A stretch of DNA of 64,000 nt from Thermoanaerobaculaceae bacterium (GCA_963712665.1 CAVQIV010000022.1:279215-343214); one strand, 5' to 3'; positions 16,181 through 64,000 are shown, numbered from the stretch's first letter. Notes: generated from the sequence alone by a model not told the origin. Numbers and translations: made by a program.

Positions 16181-30406
<14,226 letters not shown>

Positions 30407-46726: not shown

Positions 46727-46728
46727 AG

Positions 46729-47238: not shown

Positions 47239-47263
47239 GCCGGTCATCGCTCCCGGAGGCTCT

Positions 47264-47722: not shown

Positions 47723-47730
47723 ATGGGCCT

Positions 47731-48276: not shown

Positions 48277-48292
48277 GAGAGCATCGTAGCGC

Positions 48293-48337
48293 GTCCCTGC
48301 TGTCCTTGCAGTCCCTGCTGTCCCTGTCGTCCCTGCT
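48293..48337. repeat. Tandem 9-bp repeat GTCCCTGCT x5 in the divergent promoter between the cyclodeaminase gene and ackA
   Basis: GTCC recurs at 48293, 48302, 48311, 48320 and 48329, an exact 9-bp period. The units are GTCCCTGCT / GTCCTTGCA / GTCCCTGCT / GTCCCTGTC / GTCCCTGCT. Confidence 0.8.
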
Positions 48338-48350
48338 ACCATCCCCCACC

Positions 48351-49598: not shown

Positions 49599-49636
49599 TA
49601 GGATGCCGGCGGCAATTGGAGCAATTGGAGAAACGA

Positions 49637-50791: not shown

Positions 50792-50821
50792 GGCCTGCGG
50801 CCTCCCGGCGACGGCGATCCC

Positions 50822-50847
50822 GCAAAAAGGCTCCTTCGCAGGAGCCC
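50822..50847 (-). terminator. Rho-independent terminator-like hairpin on the minus strand after the 59-aa ORF
   Basis: The minus strand reads GGGCTCCTGCGAAGGAGCC followed by TTTTTGCG. On the plus strand this appears as caaaaaggctccttcgcaggagccc. Confidence 0.5.
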
Positions 50848-51027
50848 TCAACAGCCCACGATTCGCAGCTCGAACTCCTTGTACTTGAGGACGTTGAGCA
50901 CATGGCTCAAAGCCATGCGGCGTGCGGTGTCGTAGTCGTGGGCGCGGACGGGGAAGGTTTCTTCTTCGTGCTGACCGGTGGGCTTCTGATAAGACACAGA
51001 AACCGCAAAGTGACGGACCTTAGACAT
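50848..51027 (-). CDS. Small hypothetical protein (59 aa), below the ORF-track size cut-off
   Basis: The ATG is at 51027..51025 with GAGGAG nine nt upstream, and the TGA at 50850..50848. The translation is MSKVRHFAVSVSYQKPTGQHEEETFPVRAHDYDTARRMALSHVLNVLKYKEFELRIVGC. The third codon position is GC-rich like neighbouring genes, and a hairpin terminator follows. Confidence 0.45.
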   Translation of the reverse strand: MSKVRHFAVSVSYQKPTGQHEEETFPVRAHDYDTARRMALSHVLNVLKYKEFELRIVGC

Positions 51028-51248
51028 GGTGGGCGTAACTCCTCGTCATGGGGTTTCAGTTCAAGACAAGACTACAAGAAAGGATGGTGGAGCATGCCAT
51101 CGGGTTGGGGAGTATAGCACCACGACCCCGCCTTGTAAAGAGCGCGTCCCAAAGTCCCCCAGGAATCGGCACGCGTCCAGCGTTGGATTGCACACGAAGA
51201 AACCCCCTACCCCACCGCTCTCGCCGTCTCGCCGGAGGCACCCGCCGG

Positions 51249-51665
51249 CTAGCCTTCAGCGGGCTGCTCGGACTGGAAACAGAACTGCTTGAACGGGTCT
51301 GACCCGACCTTGACATAGCCCGTCACACTCAGCAGCAGCATCATACCGGGCTGGACGTTGCGATCCGTTCCCAGCAGGAAAACGGAGAGATCGGCCTGGA
51401 CCTCGCTCGGCGTACCCGCCTGGAAGGCGAACGTCGAGCCCACCGCGTCCGACTCCGTGCTCGCGATGCCCGCCTGAGCGAACCAGACGGAGTTGCGAGC
51501 ATCCCGGGGCTGGATGCGCCATTCCACGAAGTACTTCCCATGCTCCCAATAGGCTTCGAGCTCGTACTCGACGAGGTCGTTGCCCTCGCATTCGACGCTG
51601 GTTCCCTTCTTCTGGATCCCGGAAGTCAGCCGGGCGCTGAGACTTTGCAACTCGCGACTCTTCAT
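51249..51665 (-). CDS. Hypothetical protein (138 aa)
   Basis: The ORF is intact with GC-rich third positions. It has no recognisable motif, and a 10-bp tandem repeat tract lies ~100-150 bp upstream. Confidence 0.5.
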   Translation of the reverse strand: MKSRELQSLSARLTSGIQKKGTSVECEGNDLVEYELEAYWEHGKYFVEWRIQPRDARNSVWFAQAGIASTESDAVGSTFAFQAGTPSEVQADLSVFLLGTDRNVQPGMMLLLSVTGYVKVGSDPFKQFCFQSEQPAEG

Positions 51666-51766
51666 GACCTCTCTCCTTTCCGTCGTCCCCGGGGCACCGG
51701 GGGGTCTCTGAGGAGTAGGTGACGAAACTGAGCCTCGAATTACACCTCGGCTCCAACCTGAGCTCC

Positions 51767-51806
51767 CCGTCCGTCATCGTCCTTGTCCGTCCTTGCCCGT
51801 CCGTGC
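51767..51806. repeat. Tandem 10-bp repeat CGTCC(G/T)T(C/G)NN x4 upstream of hypothetical gene 51249..51665
   Basis: The units are CGTCCGTCAT / CGTCCTTGTC / CGTCCTTGCC / CGTCCGTGCT. This is the same GTCC-core family as the 9-bp repeats. Confidence 0.7.
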
Positions 51807-51813
51807 TCCCCGC

Positions 51814-53167
51814 TCAACGATTGAACGGATATTCGCTGACCCAGTGGAATCTCCGGCTCAACAGCAGGAATTTAGGGGTGTCGACGTGGTGGAGGCTGGC
51901 CTGGATGCGGTGGCGGTCGAACGTCCCCTCCAGCGTGAGCCGGTCCGGCGCAGGCTGTCCGTAGGTGAGGGCGGATTTCCATTGGGGATCGTCGCGCTTG
52001 GTCAGGGCCAGCGTCTTGTGGGCGGCGTCCAGCTTGAGGGAGTACCGCTGGCGTGAGTCGCTCGACGACTGGATCGCCAGAACGGTGGGATAGTCGAACA
52101 CCAGGCGACGCCACTTCAGGACTTCCGCCGCCCGCGCGTCGCGGGCGCGGCCGTCGATCTTCAGATCGTCGACGTTCCAGACGCCGGACAAGGTCGAGGG
52201 CGCGGCACCATAACGAGTCGTCAAGTTATCGTAGCCCATGTGCAGCATGAACGCGGTGAAGCCGACGGCCAACGCTCCCTCCACCACCAGCGCGGCGATC
52301 TGCCAACGCCGCCGGCGAAAGAACGGGCGGCCGGCGGCGGGAGCGACCGGCTGGCGCAGAACCAGCAGACGGGCGAGGCGCGCCAGGTCGGGAACGGCCA
52401 GCAAGACTGCCATCGCCAGCAGGTGGGACGAGAAGAGCTTGACCGGCACGTCATAGCAGAAGTTGAGCATCACGACGTTGGTGAGGACGGGGATGGCGAT
52501 GAGGGCTCCCAGCGACGCCGTGCGGCGGAACAGGAGCAGCAGGCCGGCGACCAGCTCGGTCAATCCGGCGAAGATGGTGTAGGGAACGGAAGCGCCCATG
52601 AAGGTCCACAACAGGCCCATCGGCGAAGCGTCGCCGAACGGTTGCAACAGCCGGCTGAGCGACGGCGGGGGAAATTGAGACGGAACGACCTTCAGCCCGC
52701 CGTATTCGATCAGGATGAATACCGAGGCCGACCTGAACGAAGACCTTCAGCGCGTCGTTCAACCGTGCGTACTGGGTCCGCCTGCGGTCGAGCAGCGTCC
52801 AGACCAGCGCCGCCAGGAGAGAGACTGCCAGCATGCAGAGGGACAGCATCCAGCCGAACATCCCATCTCCGCTGCCGGTGGGCAGGTATGGGGCTTCGAC
52901 GTGGAACAGGTGCCCGGCGGTCCACTGCACGAGCGCGACCCAGAATTTCTCGTACCATCCGCCGATGACGTCGCTGCGGAAGACGAATGCCGGCACCTGC
53001 AGGTAGTAGGGGAAGAGGTACAGCACCAGGTAGGAGAAGGCGATGCGGAAAACGGTCCGCCGCAAAGGGCTCCAGGCCGGAGCCGCAGCCTCGCCCTCGT
53101 TGCTTGTCACCCCAGGGGAATCCGGAGTGTCCACCCTTTCCCCGGTTGCATAGTCGAACACGGCCAT
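51814..53167 (-). CDS. DoxX-family-like integral membrane protein, with a frame break near nt ~52730
   Basis: The ATG is at 53167..53165. The N-terminal part is in ORF 52451..53455 (MAVFDYATGERV...YLFPYYLQVPAFVF...MFGWMLSLCMLAVSLLAALVWTLLDRRRTQYARLNDALKVF). The continuation (...FILIEYGGLKVVPSQF...MGLLWTFMGASVPYTIFAGLTELVAGLLLLFRRT) is in ORF 51814..52647. Confidence 0.6.
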
Positions 53168-53168
53168 G

Positions 53169-54053
53169 TCACCCTCCAGTGAGCCGCAGATCGGCCCGAT
53201 GGGGATAACGAGACGAGCCCTCGAATCCCCTCGAGTTGGGGCCGGAGGGCTGCACCGGCAGATACTCGATTGGAATCCACTCGTCCATTCCCTCGACCCA
53301 ATAGTGCGTGTCCTGGGCGAGTTGACCCGATCTCCGCAGGCGCTGGACCTCAGCCATCGGGTAGGGGCCGTACGTCTCGCCTCCCGTCGAGAGGAAAATA
53401 ACGGCAACGGCGCTCGCGGCTGAGGGTTGCTCAGGCGTCTCCGGACCCGTCGCAAAGCGAGGAGCTGAGCCTGGCTCTGGCGCTTCTTGATGGGCTTCGT
53501 CTGACTTCTTGTAACTCTTCTTCGCGTCTTTCACGATTTCCCGGATGGCTGCCTTGTCTTTGAGGACGTCGTGGGCCGCGTCCTTCAAGTCGGCTTCAGT
53601 GATCTGATCAGCGGATTTTGCGCGCAGCAATCTGGTTAAGGCTTTCATATAGACGATGCCCGCGGCAATCGTGAGCGCGTAGATCGTCGTGGCCATCACC
53701 GCGATACCGCCCACGGTTCCTAACCCGGGAAGAAGCTTTATGGCACTTGCGCCGACGACGAGAGCGGCCGCTCCGGCCGCTACGTTGGTCATGACTCCAG
53801 CGGCCAGACTCTTGACGACGTTCTCGCTGAACGGCAGGTTGAGCTCCTTGTTGATGCGTACGTACATGGCCCAGGTGTTGGCGCCGGCGGCGGCAATGTC
53901 TGCGCCCGGGATTGGAATGAATGCGCTCCCAACGGCCAATTTGGCATGGAGCTTCACAATGCCCGCGAGCTTCTGTGGCAGATATTCGTCCACCGCCTTG
54001 TCGAGCTCCTTCGCCAGCTCGCCGGCTGCTTTGATGAGATGTCCTTCTTCCAT
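53169..54053 (-). CDS. Membrane protein with a C-terminal DUF4339 (GYF-like) domain
   Basis: The ATG is at 54053..54051 (MEEGHLIKAAGELAKEL). There are two hydrophobic helices (AFIPIPGADIAAAGANTWAMYVRI; LPGLGTVGGIAVMATTIYALTIAAGIVYM). The C-terminal domain is GETYGPYPMAEVQRLRRSGQLAQDTHYWVEGMDEWIPIEYL. The stop lies one nt from the DoxX-like start. Confidence 0.6.
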   Translation of the reverse strand: MEEGHLIKAAGELAKELDKAVDEYLPQKLAGIVKLHAKLAVGSAFIPIPGADIAAAGANTWAMYVRINKELNLPFSENVVKSLAAGVMTNVAAGAAALVVGASAIKLLPGLGTVGGIAVMATTIYALTIAAGIVYMKALTRLLRAKSADQITEADLKDAAHDVLKDKAAIREIVKDAKKSYKKSDEAHQEAPEPGSAPRFATGPETPEQPSAASAVAVIFLSTGGETYGPYPMAEVQRLRRSGQLAQDTHYWVEGMDEWIPIEYLPVQPSGPNSRGFEGSSRYPHRADLRLTGG

Positions 54054-54418
54054 AGATTCATCCCTCGTCGTTCTCCGACGCTTCAACTCCCGATCGCATC
54101 GTCTATCCCAAGATAGCACGCAGACGTCGACGAATCTACCTCGGAACCGGCTGGCTCCGCTTTGCGGGGTACTTGGGGCGAAATCACTCCGCCAGCCGTA
54201 GTGTACAGATTCGCCCGCCCCCGCCCTGCCTATCAAGTTGATGACTTGCATTTTTCGCAGACAGATACGCCATCTTCTGCGCTAATCTCCTCCCTGATAT
54301 CTATCGCTTCCGCCAGATCTCTCGCCGTAAATGAGCCCAGTACCTCCGGAAGCAGCGCCAGCAAATCTGTCGGCTGTCGAAGATCCTCTGTTCTACGACT
54401 TCCAGCAATCTACGTTCT

Positions 54419-54869
54419 TCAGTAACCCATCCTTTCCTGCGCCATCTCCGCTTCCCTTCGTACCGTCTCGCCTCTTCTTTCCTTTTCATCAGCACTTCCA
54501 GGGAGAAGTTGGGGTTTCGACGACAACTGCGGGAAGCTCACCAGCTCCAAGAACAGGTCCTCCACGCGCCCAGTCTTAGGCGACTTGCGGCGCGTGACGC
54601 AACGACTACCTTCCTGCGCCAGCTTGACGATCCACTTCTCCTGTGCAATCGGATAGATCAATCGTATGGGATGGGAAAGCACCAGGTTTGTCAGCTTCGC
54701 CTTGATCGATGCGAGATTGCGTGTCTGGATTTCCAGTAACAGACCATCTCGGACAATGATCGATCACAAACCCATCCACCACGGTTTCAAACTGATCCCC
54801 CGGTTGTGCGCACCACATTTTCAGCGATGCGTGAAGTGGCTTTTCATTCAGCAGACCGATGCCTGACAT
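54419..54869 (-). pseudogene. Decayed hypothetical gene in a lower-GC patch (two overlapping frames 54606..54869 and 54419..54682)
   Basis: The ATG is at 54869. MSGIGLLNEKPLHASLKMWCAQPGDQFETVVDGFVIDH continues after a one-nt frame change as ...LLLEIQTRNLASIKAKLTNLVLSHPIRLIYPIAQEKWIVKLAQEG.... The family is not recognised. Confidence 0.35.
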
Positions 54870-54893
54870 CTTCGTCTTGCGCGCCTGCGAGGG

Positions 54894-55301
54894 CTAGACT
54901 GGTCGCCCGAAGTACAGAACGTACCCGTCCGCATCCATGACTTCGAACCCGCGCAGTTGGTCCGAGTTGTTGCCCAGAGGCTCCCGGAACGAAACGCCAC
55001 GAGAGGTAAACTCTTCGGCCAGCGCGTCCGGATCAGGAGTATAGACGTACGCATCCCACCTGGCCCATGGATGCCGGCTGGGATTCGGCATCGGCTGCAC
55101 CTCAGGCGTAATGGCTTTGAGCATGAGCCGAACGCCGTCTCGCTTCAGCATGGCGAAATACGGGTCATCGTCGGGGCCGAGAAACGTCACTTCGAAGCCC
55201 AGACGATCTTTGTAGAACGCGATCGATGGCATGACGTCGCGAACGATGAAGAACGGGGCGACATAGCCAAGTTGTGTCTGCGTGGCGGTTGATGAAGTCA
55301 T
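54894..55301 (-). CDS. VOC-family (glyoxalase / bleomycin-resistance fold) protein
   Basis: The ATG is at 55301..55299 with GGAGA upstream. The protein reads MTSSTATQTQLGYVAPFFIVRDVMPSIAFYKDRLGFEV...GFEVMDADGYVLYFG. Confidence 0.7.
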   Translation of the reverse strand: MTSSTATQTQLGYVAPFFIVRDVMPSIAFYKDRLGFEVTFLGPDDDPYFAMLKRDGVRLMLKAITPEVQPMPNPSRHPWARWDAYVYTPDPDALAEEFTSRGVSFREPLGNNSDQLRGFEVMDADGYVLYFGRPV

Positions 55302-55714
55302 TGGAGGTCTCCTGTCGATCGAGCACGAACGCGCATGCTTTTCAGCAGCCATGCCAAGTACCCCGCCGCCGTAACATCGTAGGTAAGGCAGAACTCTGGC
55401 CACCAAGCTGGTACGCCAGGATTGGAAACGACCCGGCCGTGCACCAGGTCTAACACTCCGTGCGCCGCCAAGGCAGCCACGACAACCCAGAGCGATGACC
55501 TGAAACCGGATACCGCACCTGCAAGGAAGGCTGTGGCAATCAGCGACTCGATCACCAGTACGTTCGTGGAGGCTCCCATGGCCGCAAACAGCGCATAGTA
55601 AGACGCGATGACAATCATTACGGTTGGATAGAAGGCACGATCACGGTCCAGACCGACGACTGTCGCCAGTAGCCCTACCGCTAACGCAAGGAACGCTCCG
55701 ACCAGCAGTGCCAA
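55298..55714 (-). CDS. Small integral membrane protein (4 predicted TM helices), function unknown
   Basis: The protein is hydrophobic throughout (MALLVGAFLALAVGLLATVVGL...). Its stop overlaps the VOC start in an ATGA arrangement. Confidence 0.5.
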   Translation of the reverse strand: MALLVGAFLALAVGLLATVVGLDRDRAFYPTVMIVIASYYALFAAMGASTNVLVIESLIATAFLAGAVSGFRSSLWVVVAALAAHGVLDLVHGRVVSNPGVPAWWPEFCLTYDVTAAGYLAWLLKSMRVRARSTGDLQ

Positions 55715-55759
55715 GATTCTCCTCCTCGCCTTCAGTTGGACGCCAGATGCAACGGGTGC

Positions 55760-57487
55760 TCAAGGTTTCCAATCCACGGCGCGCTCTTCGAGGTAGGCGT
55801 CGACGGCGGCGCCCACGGTGGGATGGAAGCTGGCGGCACCGAAGCGCTCGAACAGCCCGAAGCGCTTCAGCGTGTCCTTGACCGGATCTTTCATTTCGGC
55901 GAACTGCAGCTCGATGTGCGATGCCGTCAGGCTCCGCTCGAGCTCGGCGAGCATGTCCCCCGAAGTCACGTCGATGCTGGTGACCGGCTCGGCCGTCACC
56001 ACGATCCGCTGCACCGGCGTCGGCGACTGCGCCACGGCTTCGAGCACGCGCTGGTGGAACAGCTCTGCATTGGCGAAGAACAGCGGCGCGGCCCAGCGAA
56101 ACAGCACCAATCCGGGCACGAGTCGCGCCTCGGGATACCGTTGGACGTCGTGGTAGCCCCGGATGCCGTCCACCCGGCCGAGCACGGCGTAGTCCGGCCG
56201 CCAGGAGTCCCACAGAAATTCGATGATCGCAATGACGATCGCCAGGCCGATGCCGGGAATCGCTCCAAACACGGCGACGCCGGCGAAGCAGAGCATGGAC
56301 AGCCAGAGCTCCCAACGCTCGATGCGGAAGATCCGGCGCAGGTCGTTGACCTCGAACAGGCCGATGGCGGCGGCGATCACCACCGCCGCCAGAGCGCTGC
56401 TCGGGAGGTCCGCCAGCAGATTGGGGGCCAAGAGCAGCAGCAAGGCGACGGCGACGGCGCCGACCACGCCGGTGAGTTGGGTTTTCGCGCCCGCGGCTTC
56501 GGCCACCGGAGTCCGCGACGAGCTGCTGCTGATGGGAAACCCCTGGAACAGCCCAGCGGCCAGGTTGGCGGCGCCCAGGCCGATCATCTCCTGGTTCGGA
56601 TCGACCGCGGAGCGGGTCTTGGCGGCGTAGGTGCGCGACAGGACGCTGGTGTCGGCGAACGCCACCATGGCGACGGCGCAGCCGCCGATCACCACCTGGC
56701 CGAGGTCGGCGAGGCGAGCCCAGGGCAGCGCGAACGAAGGCAGCCCCTGCGGTAGCGGGCCCAGCACCTTCACCCCGGCGCTCTCGTCGAGGCCGAAGGC
56801 GCCGACCACGATCGTCGCGCCCACCACGGCGATGAGGGTGCCGGGGATGCGCTTGAAGGGCTTGAGCACCAGGATCGCCGCCAGCGTGCCGGCGCCGATC
56901 GCGAACGCCGTCCAGTTGGCCCGGCCGCCCATCACCCCTGAGGAGATCTGCACCAGGTCGCGCAGCGGCCCGACGCCGTTGATCGAAAAACCGAACAGCT
57001 TGGGCAACTGGCTGATCAGCACCGTGAGCGCAATGCCGTTCATGTAACCATAGCGGATCGGCTTGGACAGCAGCTCGGTGACGAATCCCACGCGCAGGAG
57101 GCCGATCAGGACGCACACCACCCCTGCCACCACCGCCATCAGGCCGGCCAGGGGAATGGCCCGCTGCGGATCGCCGCCCGAAAGCGGCAGCACGACCGCG
57201 AGGATGATCGAGGCGAGAGAGGAATCCGGCCCCAGCACCAGAATGCGACTGGGACCGAACAGCGCGTAGGCGAGCAACGGGACGATCGTGGCATACAGAC
57301 CGCAGATTCCCGGCACGCCCGAAGCCACCGCGTAGGCGATTCCGACCGGCACCAGCATCGTGGTCAGCACCAGGCCGGCCATCAGATCTTTCGGCAGCCA
57401 GGCGGCCTCGTACCGGCTCAGGACCTCGAGCCCGGGCAGCCAACGCTTCCAGCCGTTCGTGACTTGACTTCTTTCGCCCACTCGCAC
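55760..57487 (-). CDS. SulP-family anion transporter with a C-terminal STAS domain
   Basis: 575 aa with multiple TM segments. It has the SulP signature region GPDSSLASIILAVVLPLSGGD...NGIALTVLISQLPKLFGF and a C-terminal STAS-like region IVVTAEPVTSIDVTSGDMLAELERSL. Confidence 0.85.
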   Translation of the reverse strand: MRVGERSQVTNGWKRWLPGLEVLSRYEAAWLPKDLMAGLVLTTMLVPVGIAYAVASGVPGICGLYATIVPLLAYALFGPSRILVLGPDSSLASIILAVVLPLSGGDPQRAIPLAGLMAVVAGVVCVLIGLLRVGFVTELLSKPIRYGYMNGIALTVLISQLPKLFGFSINGVGPLRDLVQISSGVMGGRANWTAFAIGAGTLAAILVLKPFKRIPGTLIAVVGATIVVGAFGLDESAGVKVLGPLPQGLPSFALPWARLADLGQVVIGGCAVAMVAFADTSVLSRTYAAKTRSAVDPNQEMIGLGAANLAAGLFQGFPISSSSSRTPVAEAAGAKTQLTGVVGAVAVALLLLLAPNLLADLPSSALAAVVIAAAIGLFEVNDLRRIFRIERWELWLSMLCFAGVAVFGAIPGIGLAIVIAIIEFLWDSWRPDYAVLGRVDGIRGYHDVQRYPEARLVPGLVLFRWAAPLFFANAELFHQRVLEAVAQSPTPVQRIVVTAEPVTSIDVTSGDMLAELERSLTASHIELQFAEMKDPVKDTLKRFGLFERFGAASFHPTVGAAVDAYLEERAVDWKP

Positions 57488-57545
57488 CCTCCCGTCACGG
57501 TTTCCTACACGCGAATATGGCTATGGCTCTGCTGCGCTGCCTTCA

Positions 57546-58052
57546 TCATTGTACAGCGGGCCGCGCTCTTCGGGAGTAGAGCGCCTCGTGGTGGGCCCTC
57601 CCCTTCCGCGCGAGTTGAATCTTGCCGATGATACTCAGCCGCCGGAGGGTGACCGCGGCGAGGCGCGCGTCGATGAGCCGCCCCAACTTCGCCGAGAACC
57701 GGCGGTTGACCTCGGCGGCGACCTGCGTGCCGGTGAACGTCTCTCCCACCGGCCAGGAGAGGGCGACGCGGGAGATGGCCCGGCTGATGAGCAGCTTGCG
57801 CCCTCCCAAGTCGGGCTCTTCAGGAGGTGGAGCCGGAGCGGACGGCGGAGCCGCAAACTCCGCGGCGGGAAGGGCCACCGTCTTGAACGCCTCCAGATGC
57901 TTGGCGACCGTCTCCGCCTCATGGGCGTGAGATTCCGCCTCCTCGCGATGAAACGTCTCCTGCTCCCGATGCAACGTCTCCTGCTCGCGGTGGAACGCCA
58001 GCCGCTTTTCGAGATTGGCCAATACTTCTGCAACAGAAATTTCCGTGCCCAT
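57546..58052 (-). CDS. Hypothetical coiled-coil protein with a HREQET repeat
   Basis: The ATG is at 58052..58050. The protein starts MGTEISVAEVLANLEKRLAFHREQETLHREQETFHREEAESHAHEAETVAKHLEAF. The upstream ~80 codons of the track ORF look non-coding. Confidence 0.45.
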   Translation of the reverse strand: MGTEISVAEVLANLEKRLAFHREQETLHREQETFHREEAESHAHEAETVAKHLEAFKTVALPAAEFAAPPSAPAPPPEEPDLGGRKLLISRAISRVALSWPVGETFTGTQVAAEVNRRFSAKLGRLIDARLAAVTLRRLSIIGKIQLARKGRAHHEALYSRRARPAVQ

Positions 58053-58299
58053 CTTCGCTCCTCTCACTCTGTTCCAACACCTGCCCACGCCGCCTCGCCT
58101 CGCCCGAAGCTGCGACAGAACCTTTCCCCGCACCTCCGCGCCAAGTCCCATCGAAGCGGCGGGAAAGATTCTGCAGCAACTCCCGTCCATGCCGCGACAA
58201 AGTCTATGGCCCGAGGCTGCCACAAACTCCCGCTGGTCTGCCTCCAAAGACAATGTCGCAGAATCGCCCGCCGCCGTCCCTCTTTGCGCCAATCCGTCT

Positions 58300-58830
58300 C
58301 AGAATCGGCTGATTTTGTAGCGTCTCGGGCTCAAGCCGTGACAATTTACTCCAAGTCAAGACAATCTGTCAAGACTCTGCTGCACATTCTCTACACTTCG
58401 CTCCGCCCTCTGTGGAAGCTGAGACATTCTCCAGCAATGCTGAAATATATCAAGGAGAAGGTGAGACAGCTCCGCAGACATCGCTGCATTCTCAGAAGAT
58501 TTCGCTACACTATCTCTCGATTCTGAGACATTCTATGCGAAGTCCGAAACGTTCTTCTCAGATTCATCTCAATCTCGGCAAAGGTTGAGACAGAGCAAGA
58601 ATATTGGGAACATCCTCTGGGGACTCTGCTGCATTGTCAATCGACAATGCAGCAGCATGCTTGGAGGCTGCTGCACAGCGGGTCACTCTGCGACATTTCT
58701 CTTGCAGGCCAATCAGCCGGGCTCAAGCGTTGAGACAAATGGGTTGGCGGCAGCGTGGTGTTCCGGGACGTTGCGACAGAAGCGAGCCACGCATCGACGC
58801 CACCGGCTTGGCCTTAGACTGTTGATCCGA
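58300..58830. promoter_or_regulatory. AT-rich, repeat-laden intergenic block with five TGAGACA copies, flanking GGGCTCAAGC direct repeats and a 13-bp perfect palindrome
   Basis: Local GC is clearly below the window average. TGAGACA occurs at 58429, 58471, 58533, 58595 and 58740. CGGGCTCAAGC occurs at 58335 and 58727. The palindrome is CTGCTGCATTGTC-AATC-GACAATGCAGCAG at 58635-58664. Confidence 0.5.
58627..58642 (+). promoter_or_regulatory. Sigma54-like -24/-12 element (TGGGGAC-N4-CTGCA), ~185 bp upstream of the HXXEE gene
   Basis: The sequence TGGGGACTCTGCTGCA has the GG and GC doublets spaced as in the TGGCAC-N5-TTGCA consensus. It overlaps the left arm of the 13-bp palindrome. Confidence 0.3.
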
Positions 58831-59330
58831 TGACTGAGGAGCTCCGCAGCATGCTGCTCGGCACAGCGGGCTTGAGCGTCGCCGCCGTGGTGGCTCTCGG
58901 TCTGACCCTCTCGCGAGGTGGAGTCGTCGGGGACGAAACGAAGCTTCGGGCCTCCATCCGGCTCGCCGTCCTCGCCGTTCTCCTCCAGGCAGCTCACTTC
59001 GCGGAAGAGTGGGCGACAGGATTCCACCAGCGCTTCCCGGAGCTCCTCGGCCTCAGCCCCTGGTCGATCCGCTTCTTCGTGACGTTCAACCTGGTCTGGA
59101 TCGCGATCTGGATCCTCAGTCTCTGGGGCCTGAAGGCACGCCGGCGGGTGGCCCTGTTCCCCCTCTGGTTCCTCGGGCTCGGCTGCGTGGCGAACGGTCT
59201 GGCTCACCCCCTCTTCGCGCTCCGCACGGGAGGCTACTTCCCGGGCCTCGTCACCTCGCCCCTCGTGGGGATCGTAGGGCTCCTGCTCCTGCGGCGCCTG
59301 TTCCGGATCACAACCTCGCCGTTGCCTTGA
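58830..59330 (+). CDS. HXXEE-domain membrane protein
   Basis: The ATG is at 58830. The HFAEEW motif lies inside a multi-TM protein (MTEELRSMLLGTAGLSVAAVVALGL...LQAAHFAEEWATGFHQRFPELLGLSPWSIRFFVTFNLVWIAIWIL). Confidence 0.65.
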   Translation: MTEELRSMLLGTAGLSVAAVVALGLTLSRGGVVGDETKLRASIRLAVLAVLLQAAHFAEEWATGFHQRFPELLGLSPWSIRFFVTFNLVWIAIWILSLWGLKARRRVALFPLWFLGLGCVANGLAHPLFALRTGGYFPGLVTSPLVGIVGLLLLRRLFRITTSPLP

Positions 59331-59390
59331 CCGGCGGGATGCCCTACAATACGCCTCCGCTTCGCGGAGACCCTCCTGCGTCTCCGTTCA

Positions 59391-59465
59391 GCCGACGTAG
59401 CTCAGTGGTAGAGCAGCTGATTCGTAATCAGCAGGTCGTCGGTTCAAATCCGACCGTCGGCTCCA
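59391..59465 (+). tRNA. tRNA-Thr (anticodon CGU), with CCA encoded
   Basis: The acceptor stem is GCCGACG/CGTCGGC. The D arm is GCTC-AGTGGTA-GAGC. The anticodon arm is GCTGA-TTCGTAA-TCAGC, with U33, anticodon CGT and A37. The variable loop is AGGTC, the T arm is GTCGG-TTCAAAT-CCGAC, the discriminator is T, and CCA is at 59463-59465. Confidence 0.9.
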
Positions 59466-59772
59466 GCCGTAAATCACTGTAAAATAAGCACTTCCGCCGC
59501 GGCGCCTTTCGGCTCCGGAGCCCCGCTGTTTCTCCCATGTAAGGCGGGTGTAAGGCGGCCGGCCCACTTCGGCACCTTCCCGCCTGTCCGGGTGGGGGGC
59601 TGAGCCGTGGGCGTCGTCTATGAGATCGTCCGCCGATTCCTCAGAAAACAGAAACGGCGCCACGCGGCGCCGAGCATGCCCCGCTTCCGATTCCGGCAGC
59701 GGTAAACCAGACGGCCCGGCGGGGTGGTAGGACACGTCCGCCGGACCTGACCCGAGCAAGGAGTCAACGTCC

Positions 59773-60219
59773 ATGCACGAGCTAACCCCGCAGTCTACAA
59801 CGCCCTCAACACCGCCCACGCCGTCCGGCCCTGCGGTATCCCCGCCGGTCATCCACCCGGAGCAATTCGAGGACTATCCCGCCTTCAGGGAGGTGTTCCT
59901 ACTCTTCTTCTCTGACGCCAAAGCGAACGCCGCCATGCGGAGCTTCGGGTTGCTTATCCATGAGATGGTCCTGGAGTTCTGGGGCCACTGGCCCGCCCAC
60001 CGCGAGGGGATGTTCCCCGCGGAGCTTCGGGCCGCCGTGGCCGATCTGCGCCACGTCCAGGGGTGCCTCCAGGAGTGGACCGGGCCGGCCTGCCCCGTCG
60101 ATTCCGAGTATGAACGCCGTCTCTCCGAGGTGGGCGCCGACGTGGCCCGCGGCATCGGCAAGCTCGCGGATCGCCTGGAGGTGGAGCTGGATTCGTGGCT
60201 GGAAGGGATGTCCTCATGA
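59773..60219 (+). CDS. Hypothetical protein A (148 aa), first of a tandem paralog pair
   Basis: The ATG is at 59773 with AAGGAG nine nt upstream. The motifs EDYPAFREVFLLFF...AAVADLRHVQG match EDFAVFRETFLAYF...AVVADLRHLEG in the next ORF. Confidence 0.55.
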   Translation: MHELTPQSTTPSTPPTPSGPAVSPPVIHPEQFEDYPAFREVFLLFFSDAKANAAMRSFGLLIHEMVLEFWGHWPAHREGMFPAELRAAVADLRHVQGCLQEWTGPACPVDSEYERRLSEVGADVARGIGKLADRLEVELDSWLEGMSS

Positions 60220-60650
60220 GCGCCGCATCCTCACCCCTCATTCCAGACACTCCAGAACCCGAAGACGAAGACGCGGCCGGCCCCCCTAACTTCGATCCCA
60301 TGGAGTGGGAGGACTTCGCCGTTTTCCGGGAGACCTTCCTCGCCTACTTCACCATCCCCGAGCACAACGCTCTCCTGCGCGGCGCGGGGAATCTCATCTT
60401 CGATATGACCTTAGCCGCTTCGGCCAAGTGGCCCGATCAGCCGGAAGGGTGGCTCCGCGGCGAGCTGCGGGCCGTGGTGGCCGATCTCCGCCACCTGGAG
60501 GGCTTCCTTGTGACGCTCGCCGTGTCGCCCTCACCCGATCCCTACGAGGGTGCTCTCCACCGTACGGCGGTGCTCATGTCTCGCGAGATCGCGTCCGTTG
60601 CCGAGCATATCGAGGGCAAGCTCGGCACGTGGCGGGGGGAGGCGTCATGA
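60216..60650 (+). CDS. Hypothetical protein B (144 aa), paralog of A
   Basis: The ATG at 60216 overlaps the stop of A in an ATGA arrangement. The full protein is alignable with A. Confidence 0.55.
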   Translation: MSAASSPLIPDTPEPEDEDAAGPPNFDPMEWEDFAVFRETFLAYFTIPEHNALLRGAGNLIFDMTLAASAKWPDQPEGWLRGELRAVVADLRHLEGFLVTLAVSPSPDPYEGALHRTAVLMSREIASVAEHIEGKLGTWRGEAS

Positions 60651-60892
60651 GGCGCCGGTGGTGGAGCTGGCCCACGAGCGCTGTTCATCGGCTCGACATC
60701 CACGCCACACCGGAGCAGTTGGCGGCGTGGACCGCAGCAGCCCGTCTCTCTGGGGTCCCCCTCCAGGTCTGGCTAACGCAAGCCGGGGACGCCCACGCCC
60801 GCAACCTGCAACGATCCGTCAAGCAGACGCAAGCGGCCGGGAAGAAGGGGAAGCAGGGGCTTGCACCCGAGCCCGGCGGGGAGGTGCCGTGA
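60647..60892 (+). CDS. Hypothetical small protein C (81 aa), first of a second tandem paralog pair
   Basis: The ATG at 60647 overlaps the stop of B in an ATGA arrangement. The motif HATPEQLAAWTAAARLSGVPLQVWLTQAGDAHARNL matches ARREQAERWEAAASADGLRSVGSWLAETADAHLREL in D. Confidence 0.45.
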   Translation: MRRRWWSWPTSAVHRLDIHATPEQLAAWTAAARLSGVPLQVWLTQAGDAHARNLQRSVKQTQAAGKKGKQGLAPEPGGEVP

Positions 60893-61152
60893 GCGGGTCC
60901 TACTGGTGCCAGAGCACGGCCACCACGACCTACACCGTCACGGCCCGGCGGGAGCAAGCGGAGCGATGGGAAGCCGCTGCTTCCGCTGACGGGTTGCGGT
61001 CGGTCGGCTCGTGGCTCGCCGAGACGGCGGATGCCCACCTGCGGGAGCTGGTGCGGGTGGGCCGGGCCGGCCCCCCTGACGTGGCTCCGGGATCGTTTCC
61101 GGGTGCCAGTGACGGACACCACGGCCCGGCCCGCAGTCACCCGGGAGGTTGA
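60889..61152 (+). CDS. Hypothetical small protein D (87 aa), paralog of C
   Basis: The GTG at 60889 overlaps the stop of C in a GTGA arrangement. The start codon choice is uncertain. Confidence 0.4.
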   Translation: MSGSYWCQSTATTTYTVTARREQAERWEAAASADGLRSVGSWLAETADAHLRELVRVGRAGPPDVAPGSFPGASDGHHGPARSHPGG

Positions 61153-61162
61153 AGTTGCCGGG

Positions 61163-61426
61163 ATGGTGTCCGGCCCGTTTGGGATCTTCCGGGGAGACGG
61201 CCGGGGCGTGGGCGAGCCCGGCTGTTCCCGCTACTCCCTGGTCCATCGCCCAACGCGGCGGGTTGTCGCCACGCTCCCCCTGCGGAAGTCCTGTATGGCG
61301 CTCGCGGCGGAGCTGGCGGGCCTGCAAATCGACTGGCGGGAGATCGATCCGCAGAAGGTGCTCGGCGCGGCTCCTGACCGGGGAAAGGCGCAAGCGCTTA
61401 TCCGGCTCTTTGAGAAGCTCACCTAA
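61163..61426 (+). CDS. Hypothetical small protein E (87 aa)
   Basis: The ATG is at 61163 with GGGAGG upstream, ten nt after the stop of D. The C-terminal half (SLVHRPTRRVVATLPLRKSCMALAAELAGLQIDWREIDPQKV) looks protein-like. A hairpin with a T-run follows. Confidence 0.45.
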   Translation: MVSGPFGIFRGDGRGVGEPGCSRYSLVHRPTRRVVATLPLRKSCMALAAELAGLQIDWREIDPQKVLGAAPDRGKAQALIRLFEKLT

Positions 61427-61440
61427 GACGTAGGAAGTGT

Positions 61441-61483
61441 GGGGCCGGTTCCGAGAGAGGGCCGGCCTTGCGTTTTTGTCTTG
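61441..61483 (+). terminator. GC-rich hairpin (repeat copy 1) plus T-run; a terminator-like element after ORF E
   Basis: The hairpin GGGGCCGGTTCCGAGAGAGGGCCGGCC is followed by TTGCGTTTTTGTCTTG. Confidence 0.55.
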
Positions 61484-61517
61484 CACCTCTGTCCACCACA
61501 CAAAGCCCGAGACCTAC

Positions 61518-61733
61518 TCAACCGAGCTGCGGGAGTCCGGCGTTCTTACGGTATTCGGCGACTTGGTCGAGAGTAAAGGAGACATCTCCGTTACCGCACC
61601 CGTGATAGTCGATGAATTGATCCGGAATTAGATCCTCTATCCGAATTTCGATAGTCTTGCCACACCCGCACTTGTAGTCCAATGCTCGCTTAGCCCAATT
61701 GAAAACAATGCCTTCCTTGAAGGTTCTGTCCAT
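61518..61733 (-). CDS. Small Cys-rich hypothetical protein (71 aa) bracketed by two identical hairpin repeats
   Basis: The ATG is at 61733..61731 with GGGAGG upstream. The translation is MDRTFKEGIVFNWAKRALDYKCGCGKTIEIRIEDLIPDQFIDYHGCGNGDVSFTLDQVAEYRKNAGLPQLG, with a possible C-x-C...H-x-C metal site. Local GC is below the window average. Confidence 0.5.
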   Translation of the reverse strand: MDRTFKEGIVFNWAKRALDYKCGCGKTIEIRIEDLIPDQFIDYHGCGNGDVSFTLDQVAEYRKNAGLPQLG

Positions 61734-61753
61734 CCGCTAAATCCTCCCTTTGG

Positions 61754-61780
61754 GGGGCCGGTTCCGAGAGAGGGCCGGCC
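61754..61780. repeat. Second identical copy of the 27-nt GC-rich hairpin repeat (copy 1 at 61441-61467)
   Basis: GGGGCCGGTTCCGAGAGAGGGCCGGCC is identical over 27 nt to 61441-61467. It lies between the 71-aa ORF start and the 3' end of the protease gene. Confidence 0.8.
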
Positions 61781-61821
61781 CTTTCGCTTCTGGTGTCCAT
61801 GGAGTTCACCCGTATTGGGGG

Positions 61822-62784
61822 TTAATCGAGTATAGCCGCGCCGAGATTTTCCCAAGATTCCCGCTCGCGTCGCCTCTGTTCGACCAGTTCAGGTTGATTT
61901 AACACCTCAAGTATTTTCCATGCGGGGGCGACGCACTGCATCCCGGCATTGACGCACACTTCTAACTTCACTCCGTCTGCCGTCGTCGCATTAAGAGTAA
62001 CAGGTAAGTGTCCCCAGTTGACCCCGAGCAGCCAAATGTTGCCAATAGTCTCTACTACAGACTGCCGCTTGAGATCGTTGCCTTCTGAGTGTTCTAATTC
62101 CCACTTCGGAACGTAGAGAAATACCGGGGACCCGCTGTAACCAGCCACCGAGTATGCCTCGATCAGGAAGTCTTCAAGATTTAAAATTGTGTCGTTGGGC
62201 TGTTTCGACCTAATGGGCTCCAGCGGCATCATTGACAAATAGCCGAAACGCAAGCTCGGCATATTACGCTGGACACCTTCATGATTCACAAACCGCCCGA
62301 CCGTAAACGTCTGATCGCCAGGACCGACTCCAAGCTCAGCCACCATTTCCTGAGTCAAAAGCATCTCTATGCCTATGCCTACGTGTTGGTCGGTATAGCG
62401 GCTTAGTGGTGGAATCGGACAGACCGACACCTCATCTAGATTAGGGTGGTCTACCCACAAACCGCTGTTTAAATCCATAATCCTATGGCCGCCTGCCGTC
62501 GTATTGATTCGAACTATTCTTGTTCCCCGGGAAACGTGGCGGTTGGTAACTATGTAGAAATGAACGCCTTTGCAGTGGCGGGGTTGCGCCGCATGCGCCG
62601 CCGCGTAGACCTCAGGAGATGCGAGCCGGTCATCCAGCGAAGGCGGACTGACTTCATCCTGGCCGTAGCTAGGTACGCCGAGAAGAAAGCCGCTGCCGCC
62701 GTATCTTTGGCCCTCTTCGGCGTCTTTGCGGTTCTGATAAAGGTACACCGAGCTTTCTAGGATGGAGCGGCGAATACGTGGCAT
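61822..62784 (-). CDS. Trypsin-fold (DegP/HtrA-like catalytic domain) serine peptidase without PDZ domains
   Basis: GGSGFLLGV...HFYIVTNRHV matches the HtrA GSGF...TNxHV His region. GYSGSPVFLY matches the GNSGGPL Ser region. The protein is 320 aa, and the gene body has noticeably lower GC than the window. Confidence 0.6.
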   Translation of the reverse strand: MPRIRRSILESSVYLYQNRKDAEEGQRYGGSGFLLGVPSYGQDEVSPPSLDDRLASPEVYAAAHAAQPRHCKGVHFYIVTNRHVSRGTRIVRINTTAGGHRIMDLNSGLWVDHPNLDEVSVCPIPPLSRYTDQHVGIGIEMLLTQEMVAELGVGPGDQTFTVGRFVNHEGVQRNMPSLRFGYLSMMPLEPIRSKQPNDTILNLEDFLIEAYSVAGYSGSPVFLYVPKWELEHSEGNDLKRQSVVETIGNIWLLGVNWGHLPVTLNATTADGVKLEVCVNAGMQCVAPAWKILEVLNQPELVEQRRRERESWENLGAAILD

Positions 62785-63090
62785 CCTTAGTAGCTCCCTG
62801 GTCCACAGTTAGTACGGCTGGCCATCGGGGTAAGAATACATCGTCTTCAGGCGCAAGCCGCACGGCAGACCGCACCGCGGGATGATAGTCCCACATACCG
62901 GGGGAGGATGACGCCCCCCTCGAATTATGGCTGCACGCTTATTTGCCGAGCACGCCGGTAAGCGGGAGACCCGCCGGAAAGATCGGAGGCCCCCCCTACC
63001 GCGGTTCGTCGCCGCGCCTCCCGGAGCGCCACCATCCGGGACGCCCGCGAGGTCATAGAAGCCCGGCCCGCCCTGGTGTCCACGCCCATT

Positions 63091-63266
63091 AGCGCCCGGC
63101 TGAGCCCCGATCTCCGGGAGCCCGCCCTACGGGGAGGGTGTGCGGGGGATGTCGAGAGCCGTTAACGCCTCAAGCGCAAGGGAGTCGCCTGTGCCCGCGC
63201 GCCTATTCTCCTTTCGCCTTAAACTCACCAGCGCCCGCCTGAGCCCCGATCTCCGGAGCCCGCTCC
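63091..63266. repeat. Two ~37-bp imperfect direct repeats (63091-63127 and 63230-63266) in the region upstream of the protease gene
   Basis: AGCGCCCGGCTGAGCCCCGATCTCCGGGAGCCCGCCC and AGCGCCCGCCTGAGCCCCGATCTCCGGAGCCCGCTCC share 35 of 37 positions. Confidence 0.7.
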
Positions 63267-63283
63267 CGATATACCCGCCCACC

Positions 63284-63604
63284 CTAGCCCCTTGCGGCCC
63301 CGGTGCCGTCTCCCGTCTTGGCCGTGCCTTCCTGCCCCGGGCCTTCTCCCATGCGCTCCCTCCCGCACTTCGGACACCGCGGGAGGGGATCGCCCGCCCG
63401 CACCATGGCCACGCCGTAGCAGGTGGGGGCCGCGCACACCTTGACCGCCAGCGCTCCGCCGCCGGGGGTGGGCAAGCGCTTCGCAGTCGTTCGATCCAGG
63501 GCAGCGACGTGAGCCCGCCGGTCAACGTCCTCGCGTTGCACTCTGGCCGCCGTCCGCTTGAGGGCCTTCTGCCGGCGATAGACCGGGCCTTCCTTGGCGC
63601 TCAT
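63284..63604 (-). CDS. Small Zn-ribbon protein (106 aa)
   Basis: The ATG is at 63604..63602 and overlaps the stop of the upstream ORF in an ATGA arrangement. The protein is MSAKEGPVYRRQKALKRTAARVQ...CAAPTCYGVAMVRAGDPLPRCPKCG, with two CxxC pairs. The upstream ~119 codons of the track ORF look non-coding. Confidence 0.5.
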   Translation of the reverse strand: MSAKEGPVYRRQKALKRTAARVQREDVDRRAHVAALDRTTAKRLPTPGGGALAVKVCAAPTCYGVAMVRAGDPLPRCPKCGRERMGEGPGQEGTAKTGDGTGAARG

Positions 63605-63999
63605 GATGCTGCGTCCCCTTCGACCGTCCCCGGCCCCCGGTGCTCTTCGTCGCCCTGGTGCTCCTCCGGCGCCCAATCGCCCGGCCCCACTTCCGCGCAC
63701 ACGGCACCGCACCCGGGGCACGTCCAGCACGGCCGCCGCCGCACGGTCCGGAGCATCCGCCGGCCGCGCCGACGACACGCCGGGGAGACGCAAAGAGGCG
63801 TACGCCGGAAGCCCGGACCGGGGGGATCGGCCGCCAGCACCAGGGCGAGCGCTTCGGCCTTCCCCTCCCGGAGTTGCTCGACTTCGCCCGGTGTCAACTT
63901 GTCCGCCGGCTTGATGTAGAGAGTCCCGTCCTCCACTCGAAAGCGGAGCCCGCGGAGCCAAAGCGTGTCCAGCAGATCGGCGATGCCGGAGGAGTTCAT
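63601..63999 (-). CDS. Small protein with an N-terminal TubC_N-like docking-domain motif and a Cys-rich tail; the start is at the window edge
   Basis: The ATG is at 63999..63997. MNSSGIADLLDTLWLRGLRFRVEDGTLYIKPADKLTPGEVEQLREGKAEALALVL fits the LL..L...G..L.VEGD.L...AP.G.LTPEL...L...K.ELLALL pattern of NRPS N-terminal docking domains. The C-terminal part is Cys-rich (CVSPAC...CWTCPGCGAVC), and the stop overlaps the next start. The gene could extend beyond the window. Confidence 0.4.
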   Translation of the reverse strand: MNSSGIADLLDTLWLRGLRFRVEDGTLYIKPADKLTPGEVEQLREGKAEALALVLAADPPGPGFRRTPLCVSPACRRRGRRMLRTVRRRPCWTCPGCGAVCAEVGPGDWAPEEHQGDEEHRGPGTVEGDAAS

Positions 64000-64000
64000 A

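Follow-up and report, generated by a model that had tools for sequence, protein, structure and literature searches.

Evidence for a small integrated mobile element with a variable cargo slot at a tRNA-Thr gene of a Thermoanaerobaculaceae bacterium

An integrase, an AlpA-like regulator and a primase-helicase form the core that P4-like elements and PICIs share, and three-gene sets of this kind are called 'Type C' PICI by SatelliteFinder, with the warning from the same source that they may be other mobile elements (PMC10085698). P4-like elements are essentially enterobacterial (PMC10085698). Tycheposons, described from marine Prochlorococcus and other marine bacteria, have an integrase clade of their own, and their PICI-like and cargo-only variants share integration and replication modules (bioRxiv 10.1101/2020.12.28.424599, Hackl et al.). 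Here we analyse a 64,000-nt stretch of DNA from a Thermoanaerobaculaceae bacterium (the window), in which the 4.6 kb at positions 59421-64000 are very probably the tRNA-proximal (attL) part of an integrated ~9.3-kb mobile element. The element is a genomic island of an ordinary kind, from a family not previously described, and its predicted span would run from 59421 to about 68790.

On the metagenome contig L008, a near-identical element occupies the same tRNA-Thr(CGT). A 45-nt direct repeat taken from the 3' part of the tRNA delimits it, and its components follow one another in the order attR, P4-type integrase, HTH_17 (AlpA/Xis-like) gene, primase-helicase gene, two Zn-ribbon genes, cargo, a ribbon-helix-helix (RHH) gene and attL/tRNA. 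The window, together with an overlapping contig designated L001, has in common with L008 the attL arm, the RHH gene (58-68% identical), a 106-aa gene, a 132-aa gene and the primase-helicase gene. The full set of integrase, regulator and primase-replicase is seen in L008 and in a second related element, L013; of the window's own copy, only the helicase C-terminus is seen, on L001. As in PICI 'Type C', the integrase, small HTH_17 and primase-helicase genes run in one direction from one att end, with accessory genes downstream and a small overall size of 5-13 kb. Unlike PICIs, the family has no detected terS or capsid-morphogenesis gene, leaving three of the five core components, and apart from a weak terS-PHROG match of the HTH_17 protein the ORFs of the window and of L008 gave no PHROG or Pfam match to small terminase or capsid-morphogenesis proteins. 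Also unlike PICIs, the replication protein joins a DnaG-type Zn ribbon with AAA_25, and the element resides in an uncultured bacterium whose GC is about 73%.

Functional analogues of three of the seven P4 core components, namely integrase, alpA and primase-helicase, are present in L008, where the integrase has the P4-type Arm-DNA-bind_3 N-terminus and a tRNA target. A further likeness to P4 hotspots is an internal slot whose content varies between near-identical elements and includes defence-type genes (MmeI restriction-modification in L008). In contrast to P4, the intact tRNA and the integrase are at opposite att ends, and the searches run revealed no relationship between the helicase and P4 alpha. 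The L008 element also has the architecture of tycheposons, namely tyrosine recombinase, excisionase and primase/helicase hallmarks, a tRNA target with a partial tRNA repeat, and variable cargo; the match is one of architecture, with no integrase phylogeny behind the comparison, and the cargo here looks defensive or accessory, unlike the nutrient-acquisition cargo of tycheposons.

A first alternative is that the element is a phage satellite of PICI/P4-like lifestyle. A helper phage would induce excision and replication and package the element in helper capsids, and ORFs A-D/E and the 106-aa and 132-aa genes would serve helper sensing or hijacking. The shared three-gene core and the size range fit such a satellite, the restriction-modification and defence-like cargo hotspot parallels the P4 hotspots (PMC13586616), and the L008 HTH_17 protein matches a small-terminase PHROG at 2e-6, albeit more weakly than it matches excisionases. 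Against this, PHROGs, Pfam and NCBIfam yielded no homolog of capsid-morphogenesis proteins, terS, or P4 psu, sid, delta or epsilon, and no helper is known. In IMG/VR the helicase alignment found one distant match (25% identity) and the attL-arm pattern found none among the viral contigs, while tblastn of the helicase against INPHARED phages returned three weak partial matches only. The SatelliteFinder warning also applies, and we regard a satellite as possible but rather unlikely. An ordinary prophage was rejected, given the element's length of only about 9 kb and the failure to find structural genes. No recognisable virion, capsid, packaging or conjugation genes were found in the element with Pfam, PHROGs or NCBIfam, so its transfer must use a helper, as satellites do, or another route. 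The 'phage- or plasmid-like' label of an earlier sequence-only reading is thus narrowed to an element with integrase, Xis-like and primase-helicase genes.

The tRNA-Thr gene (anticodon CGT; 59391-59465, + strand) was identified by ARAGORN and by Rfam (tRNA, 77 bits), with a promoter-like site at 59322-59350 in a promoter scan. It is a host gene, present intact at this junction of the element, and its 3' part is the integration target. The attL core comprises 45 nt from the anticodon loop to the CCA (59421-59465), and is 100% identical to its far-end duplicate in L008 (5212-5256), which lies beside the L008 integrase. The sequence-only reading had proposed integration at the tRNA 3' end and had seen no second copy of that end; the first point is supported by L008, with its same core genes, tyrosine integrase and 45-nt repeat, and the second was borne out by a search of the 64-kb window allowing 3 mismatches, in which GGTTCAAATCCGACCGTCGGCTCCA had no further match.

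That reading had also placed a lower-GC island of small genes after housekeeping genes. Ten ORFs lacking a family match do follow the tRNA, none reaching a Pfam curated threshold or matching NCBIfam, but the genes just upstream (a SulP permease, a 248-aa hypothetical and an HXXEE membrane protein) are cellular rather than really housekeeping. Similarly, GC does dip in the cargo stretch at 61438-63090 (56.1%), but there is no step at the tRNA: GC is 73.4% over 1-46000, 64.4% over 46001-59390 and again 64.4% over 59466-64000. Since the 13 kb upstream are as low in GC as the DNA downstream, GC does not mark the left boundary, and an island boundary defined by GC was rejected. The right module (63284-64000) has a host-like GC of 72.2%, and the core modules in general stand at 68-72% against ~56% for the cargo slot.

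The element arm adjoining attL (59466-59772) is non-coding and nearly invariant among four elements (alignment A3). It contains a terminator-like hairpin (59655-59672, - strand) and a pair of CCTTACA motifs with 11-bp spacing (59538-59544 and 59549-59555), which are the only two occurrences in the 64 kb; in L008, L013 and the 5-kb variant L012, a pair of this kind lies close to either end. These repeats are putative arm-type integrase sites. Following the arm, ORF A (59773-60219, +; 148 aa, no known family) and its paralog ORF B (60216-60650, +; 144 aa) are 38% identical to each other; ORF A is 71% identical to L013 18049-18492, and its cluster has members at at least 90% identity on other long contigs. 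ORF C (60647-60892, +; 81 aa, no family match) is 90% identical to L012 3624-3869 and resembles the N-terminal domain of ORF D/E, both being read as RHH-like by eye.

ORF D/E is one conserved gene of ~178 aa occupying two frames (60889-61426, +; 60889-61152 and 61031-61426), collinear with intact 177-180-aa genes of L008, L013 and another related element, L006. The split is due to one extra base in a GC/C-run near 61065-61075, so this copy of the element may be decaying or the base may be a homopolymer error. The C-terminal domain of ORF D/E has just 105 representatives among 1.84 billion; its single-sequence AlphaFold model (pLDDT 50) was unusable, and a Pfam scan of longer family members found no fused domains. 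Profile searches with the ORF A/B, ORF D/E and 132-aa families found nothing significant among PDB sequences, and Pfam, PHROGs, PADLOC and NCBIfam gave no usable matches that would indicate what these orphans do. Start and stop codons overlap, as originally described, and this was read directly at four places: ATGA at 60216-60219 and 60647-60650, GTGA at 60889-60892 and, on the - strand, ATGA at 63601-63604.

The operon is followed by a GC-rich hairpin and T-run (61438-61467, +), likely both the terminator of ORFs A-D/E and the left border of the cargo slot; the stretch conserved with L012 stops just past it, at window position 61481. The hairpin is the first copy of a 30-nt repeat whose second copy (61751-61780, +) is 97% identical, in agreement with the hairpin repeats already noticed from sequence. 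L012 has a single stretch matching copy 2 (window 61755-61784), adjoining different cargo of its own. Between the two copies lies a small cargo cassette, a 71-aa Cys-containing orphan ORF (61518-61733, -; 50.0% GC) that forms a singleton cluster and has no homolog found next to homologs of the neighbouring protease. The right border is a junction sequence in two copies (63091-63125, partial, and 63198-63315), with a second repeat at 63091-63117 and 63230-63256. The sequence at 63091-63315 is common to module junctions of L008 and L012; as RNA, the junction repeats (63060-63300) fold no better than shuffled sequence does. The borders of the slot are thus conserved and its content differs between element copies: this copy holds the protease and 71-aa ORF, L008 has an MmeI-type restriction-modification enzyme together with an MNT gene, and the genes in L012 and L013 are different again.

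The main cargo gene (61822-62784, -; 53.3% GC) codes for a 320-aa Trypsin_2-like serine protease of chymotrypsin fold, the stand-alone protease of the sequence-only reading. Across 50 homologs H83 and S217 (in GYSGSP) are invariant and D117/D118 near-invariant, giving a conserved triad. The AF2 model (pLDDT 87.8) has a chymotrypsin/HtrA-like fold, with the DegS and DegP protease domains as best PDB matches (Foldseek E about 1e-8); the protease itself falls below the Pfam threshold, and many homologs carry PF13365. It shares with HtrA/DegS-type proteases this fold, the His-Asp-Ser triad and a GxSGxP-like motif. Unlike them, however, it has no PDZ domain and no signal peptide, is only 12-16% identical, and sits in mobile-element, phage and IS contexts; it is a cytoplasmic, stand-alone enzyme. 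Seven IMG/VR viral contigs contain homologs, at eight loci in all, and homologs also lie in regions rich in toxin-antitoxin genes; elsewhere the protease accompanies IS1- and IS1595-type transposases and is present in phage genomes. Among INPHARED phages tblastn gave no match, and a fold search in BFVD returned generic 3C-like proteases only. A match to PADLOC PDC-S45 (E 1.8e-7) covers about 55 residues, 204-259, on profile positions 190-237 of 293 and is not full-length, and PDC-S45 is itself an untested candidate defence gene (PMC12429752). The payload in the slot probably benefits the host or acts against phages; for the protease, a candidate defence function is only suggested.

Beyond the slot, two Cys-rich core genes lead to the window end, and correspond to the Zn-ribbon proteins recognised earlier, although the one family match is a weak one to Zn_ribbon_9 (E 0.0055). 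The 106-aa Zn-ribbon-like protein (63284-63604, -) is 85% identical to L008 10396-10728 (106/110 aa). The 132-aa protein (63601-63999, -), with a below-threshold TubC_N-like N-terminus and a Cys-rich C-terminus, is 94.7% identical to L008 10001-10399 and 60% to L013 14508-14891, and its gene always directly follows the primase-helicase gene. Of the latter, the last 5 bases including the stop codon are seen (63996-64000, -), and the gene runs past the window end. The search for contigs encoding window proteins gave short Logan contigs only, L001 (1850 bp) and L002 (1428 bp). L001 matches window 63239-64000 at 100% and runs on for another 1089 nt, encoding AAA_25 (8.8e-19) and HTH_23 in a helicase part 97.5% identical to the C-terminus of the 753-aa L008 protein. 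The rightward extension that had been proposed therefore adds the helicase part and stops short of the integrase and attR of this copy. Scans of metagenome contigs found nothing further, and searches of genome contigs with the helicase sequence and alignment gave nothing useful, L010 being only a distant match.

Could the element have come by integration and since become a fixed, eroding remnant? The frameshift in the conserved ORF D/E gene points that way, as does L012, a deletion variant lacking the replication module. The visible 363 aa of the helicase are, however, free of stops, and L012 shows the opposite shift in the GC/C-run that holds the frameshift, as is typical of homopolymer error. 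Furthermore, the integrase P0281 is full length and 98% identical to that of L008; it is found on a 367,203-bp contig, and the window's own proteins are likewise on record on a contig of that size, equal contig size rather than position being what links the two. We consider a remnant improbable. Another possibility is an integrative mobilizable element that moves by conjugation, borrowing the relaxase and type IV secretion system in trans, with the RHH proteins as oriT relaxosome accessories. It would suit the presence of two RHH-like small proteins, whose genes lie in a conserved operon adjoining the highly conserved non-coding arm, and also the lack of packaging genes. Yet no library searched gave a relaxase, MobC, coupling-protein or T4SS match, the RHH assignment was by eye only, and attP explains the conserved arm well enough, making this explanation decidedly improbable.

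The sequence-only reading had staked itself on the gene content of tRNA-Thr loci in related genomes, and L008 gives the opposite of the outcome that would have spoken for resident genes. That these are lineage-specific host genes lying beside the tRNA by chance, as the missing GC step and the equally low GC of the upstream 13 kb might suggest, is extremely improbable, given the same genes bounded by an att repeat and integrase in L008, the L013 copies within a disrupted gene, and host flanks that are not syntenic beyond about 75 nt. The L013 element lies at a different locus, in a look-alike site flanked by a 23-nt direct repeat, and interrupts an AMP-binding gene, whose two pieces cover profile positions 1-191 and 211-384, which shows that the family is mobile. 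Location varies again in L006, where a related element and integrase lie beside a tRNA-Arg(CCG)-like 3' fragment. An empty tRNA-Thr site was not found in a close relative.

For the integrated mobile element, we propose a mechanism drawn from established knowledge of tyrosine-recombinase elements, a circular form not being among the observations. The unseen part would be collinear with L008, comprising the primase-helicase gene, a 53-aa ORF, the HTH_17 (AlpA/Xis-like) gene, a 135-aa ORF and the integrase. The P4-type tyrosine integrase is expected at about 67.3-68.6 kb on the - strand, at the end far from the tRNA and thus not visible in the window, and attR at about 68744-68788, with a copy of TTCGTAATCAGCAGGTCGTCGGTTCAAATCCGACCGTCGGCTCCA expected past the window end. 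The integrase would bind both the CCTTACA pairs, as arm sites, and the anticodon stem-loop, as the core, and recombine attP with the tRNA gene, which would be rebuilt from the element-borne copy. Together with the HTH_17 protein it would excise the element in circular form, and the primase-helicase would then replicate this circle. Unrelated low-GC genes are exchanged in the central slot, which repeated sequences border.

A guess from raw sequence has thus become a delimited element whose predicted right end is open to checking, and a small family of modular integrative elements with four architectures, clear attP anatomy and a recombination-bordered cargo slot, most of whose genes have no known family. 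We also entertain, as a speculative and on balance unlikely extension, that this is a helper-dependent (satellite-like) or vesicle-borne family of high-GC uncultured bacteria whose slot exchanges single-gene anti-phage systems, with the protease as a new stand-alone defence or counter-defence effector. For annotation, the lesson is that the integrase of this element family is found at the tRNA-distal end. Slots of this type are productive places to find new defence genes, and the protease provides a concrete candidate.

The only tRNA placed in the window by ARAGORN and Rfam is tRNA-Thr(CGT) (59391-59465, + strand), with a promoter-like site at 59322-59350. To its right, the sequence-only reading had described densely packed small genes, and this is borne out: ORF A (148 aa, 59773-60219), ORF B (144 aa, 60216-60650), ORF C (81 aa, 60647-60892) and two ORFs at 60889-61152 and 61031-61426, read here as one split gene (ORF D/E), all lie on the + strand. 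They are followed on the - strand by a 71-aa ORF (61518-61733), a 320-aa protease gene (61822-62784), a 106-aa gene (63284-63604) and a 132-aa gene (63601-63999). Four of the gene junctions are ATGA or GTGA overlaps; none of the ORFs right of the tRNA has a match at the curated Pfam threshold or in NCBIfam, and PHROGs yielded a single weak match, for the protease. The hairpin repeats in that reading are also real, one of 30 nt (61438-61467 and 61751-61780, 97% identical) and one of 27 nt (63091-63117 and 63230-63256), and a second copy of the tRNA 3' end was, as it had reported, not found in the window even with 3 mismatches allowed. GC calls for a caveat. It is truly low only in 61438-63090 (56.1%), with 63284-64000 at 72.2%; the 64.4% of 59466-64000 is identical to that of 46001-59390 (1-46000 has 73.4%), and therefore no boundary at the tRNA can be read from GC.

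Directly upstream of the tRNA are genes for a SulP permease, a 248-aa hypothetical protein and an HXXEE membrane protein. The hypothetical gene (57546-58292, - strand), which has no family match, contains three 21-nt tandem repeats (57938-58008) encoding HREQETL-like heptads. Within 46001-59390 there are GC troughs at 54000-55500 (56.9%) and 58200-58800 (53.1%) with several family-less ORFs, and the 5' side of the tRNA-Thr in a comparator contig, L008, is likewise low-GC (61.7%), non-syntenic DNA; variability at the tRNA-Thr locus may thus extend to either side of the gene. Farther left, a 1350-aa SMC_N/AAA_23 protein (43186-47238), inside whose gene the GC begins to fall, carries a C-terminal DinB_2 domain, in what looked like an unusual fusion.

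A complete element at the same tRNA was found in L008, a 120-kb JGI contig carrying a cluster-mate (at least 90%) of the 132-aa protein. After thrC-thrB-thrA (72.8% GC) come 45 nt that duplicate the 3' part of tRNA-Thr (5212-5256), followed by a tyrosine integrase (Arm-DNA-bind_3 + Phage_integrase; PHROG 1 at 1.7e-43), a 135-aa ORF, a 70-aa HTH_17 protein (best PHROG excisionase/regulator), a 53-aa ORF and a 753-aa primase-helicase (Zn_ribbon_DnaG + AAA_25 + HTH_23). Then come 132-aa and 110-aa genes, an MNT-type nucleotidyltransferase, an HTH_17 gene, a 360-aa gene, an MmeI-type restriction-modification enzyme, 180-aa and 107-aa genes and finally tRNA-Thr(CGT) itself (17966-18040), for an element size of ~12.75 kb. 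Identity between the window and L008 is 100% over the 45-nt att repeat, 97.5% for the helicase C-terminus, 94.7% for the 132-aa protein, 85% for the 106/110-aa protein, 58-68% for the 180-aa protein and 78.5% over the 484 nt of the tRNA and the non-coding stretch beside it (59466-59772, the attL arm). The proposal of integration at the tRNA 3' end was thus essentially right, and the DNA after the tRNA is very probably the attL half of an integrated element with the architecture described here. The integrase is not visible in the window because in this family it sits at the tRNA-distal end. On the host side of the L008 tRNA, a 51-aa ORF (18344-18499) has a leader-like sequence ending in GG and then a Cys/Thr/Ser-rich core, resembling a RiPP precursor; a 520-aa gene of no family (18604-20166) follows.

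The rightward extension suggested by the sequence-only reading was supplied by L001, a short Logan contig (run ERR11593391) that overlaps 63239-64000 at 100% and continues for 1089 nt into the primase-helicase C-terminus. The partial gene on L001 shares its strand with the 132-aa gene, whose start it overlaps, and encodes the last 363 residues of an ATPase of the AAA_25 type (8.8e-19), ending in HTH_23; relatives at 61-65% identity are DnaB_N + AAA_25 + HTH proteins. A search with the L008 integrase, followed by cluster listing, led to P0281, a 427-aa protein record 98% identical to that integrase. Its contig is 367,203 bp long, exactly the length of the contig that carries the window's own proteins, and from this agreement we infer that P0281 is the integrase of the window's element, past the window end. 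Mapping of L008 coordinates onto the window predicts the integrase at ~67.3-68.6 kb (- strand) and attR at ~68744-68788, with the expected sequence TTCGTAATCAGCAGGTCGTCGGTTCAAATCCGACCGTCGGCTCCA, which would make the element ~9.3 kb.

In the alignment of four elements, almost no variation is seen over the 307 nt that separate the tRNA from ORF A, which are better conserved than the coding sequence beside them. This arm includes GGTAAACCAGACGGCCCGGCGGGGTG and, at 59538 and 59549 (11 bp apart), the only two copies of the motif CCTTACA in the whole 64-kb window. L008, L013 and L012, the last two being further family members, have one CCTTACA pair just inside each end; these pairs are candidate arm-type sites, which the integrase would bind through its Arm-DNA-bind_3 domain. 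Since the duplicated segment begins within the anticodon loop, the core is the anticodon stem-loop (CTGAT-TCGTA-ATCAG), a common layout for integrases of this type. A terminator-like hairpin (59655-59672, - strand) is conserved in the arm as well. On the - strand, the conserved non-coding sequence at 59640-59775 gives a three-hairpin fold ending in a terminator-like stem and T-run (z = -1.8); beyond binding proteins as DNA, the arm could thus encode a small regulatory RNA.

Direct evidence of the family's mobility came from L013, a 51.7-kb JGI contig with the gene order of L008. Its integrase and HTH_17 protein are 85% and 90% identical to those of L008; identity is 47% for the primase-helicase and 60% for a 127-aa gene, a 177-aa gene is also present, and its ORF A and ORF B homologs are 71% and 44% identical to the window's. 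No tRNA is present at this element. A 23-nt direct repeat, AGCCTGYTGATTCGAGCAGAGCA, flanks it instead (9832-9854 and 18823-18845), and the insertion cuts an AMP-binding enzyme gene in two: one piece, of 244 aa, covers profile positions 1-191, and the other, of 361 aa, covers 211-384 plus the C-terminal domain. The repeat and the tRNA-Thr anticodon arm have CCTGCTGATT in common; the element is thus inserted at a site resembling that arm. The tRNA-like segment borne by the L013 element is degenerate; its cargo region contains a perfect 40-nt tandem duplication (15829-15908), and a run of repeats with a 15-nt period (11597-11755) lies within a 74-aa ORF located between the genes for the integrase and the HTH_17 protein.

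A more distant member, L006 (helicase 65% identical; 180-aa gene 92% identical to that of L008), suggests another tRNA target, with a tRNA-Arg(CCG)-like 3' fragment (6228-6280, - strand) just upstream of its integrase. This fragment also adjoins a HepT/MNT toxin-antitoxin pair. L012 (5.07 kb, 1-5066) is a mini-variant from which the replication module, with its primase-helicase, is missing: the integrase is joined straight to the junction sequence, and after it come different cargo and then a stretch that matches window 59461-61481 at 85% identity. The L012 assembly is noisy, with several frameshifts, and the contig ends coincide with the att core, so that L012 may reflect a break in the assembly at the repeat or else a circle that is almost closed.

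The two ORFs at 60889-61426 make up one gene (~178 aa), interrupted by a single additional base in a GC/C-run (61065-61075); its counterparts in L008, L006 and L013, with which it is collinear, are intact and 177-180 aa long. L012 lacks one base in the same run (about 3400-3420), and this opposite shift makes homopolymer error a real possibility; the tract could also be a slippery one.

The centre of the element is a low-GC cargo slot (50-56% in the window, 56-59% in L008). The stretch common with L012 extends to just beyond the 61438-61467 hairpin, whose fold and T-run are those of a terminator, and sequence common with L008 and L012 restarts at the junction 63198-63315, of which there is an extra partial copy at 63091-63125. 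In the window the slot holds the 71-aa orphan ORF, between the two hairpin copies, and the protease; in L008, L012 and L013 it holds unrelated genes. The repeated borders suggest that slot contents may be exchanged by homologous recombination.

The protease has 233 homologs, many with PF13365; across 50 homologs H83 and S217 (in GYSGSP) do not vary, and D117/D118 hardly vary. Its AlphaFold model (pLDDT 87.8) has DegS/DegP/HtrA protease domains as top PDB matches; the protein has no PDZ domain and, by inspection, no N-terminal hydrophobic segment. The settings of its homologs include a region of L003 rich in toxin-antitoxin genes, the phage-like gene arrays of L004/L005 and L014, and eight viral loci on seven IMG/VR contigs. 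At seven comparator loci the homolog abuts a DDE transposase, IS1-like in four and of the IS1595 family in three (L003 9117-9980; L014 7087-7950; L015 1-288; L019 6920-7753; L004/L018 9007-9897; L016/L017 6968-7855; L021 6998-7885), which suggests that it moves with insertion sequences, as passenger or neighbour; no transposase lies beside the window's copy. The protease gene is a mobile accessory gene. PADLOC gave a partial match to PDC-S45, itself a computational candidate only (PMC12429752), and a role in defence is plausible, though less likely than not.

The element belongs to a known class, the small, replicative, tRNA-targeting integrative elements, and its family is undescribed. Its core set of integrase, AlpA/Xis-like protein and primase-helicase is also that of P4-like satellites, PICIs and tycheposons; to cargo-carrying tycheposons (bioRxiv 10.1101/2020.12.28.424599) the match is in architecture alone. 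That it is a phage satellite, as the shared core set might suggest, seems rather unlikely. By SatelliteFinder definitions the family has 3/5 PICI components, the ambiguous 'Type C', and at most 3/7 of those of P4 (PMC10085698), and terS, capsid-morphogenesis, psu, sid, delta and epsilon genes were not detected by Pfam or PHROGs among the ORFs of the window and L008. Nor were relaxase or T4SS genes detected in the element. A small integrative element at a tRNA is a well-understood kind of feature, yet the family is undescribed and its tidy cargo slot is worth mining.
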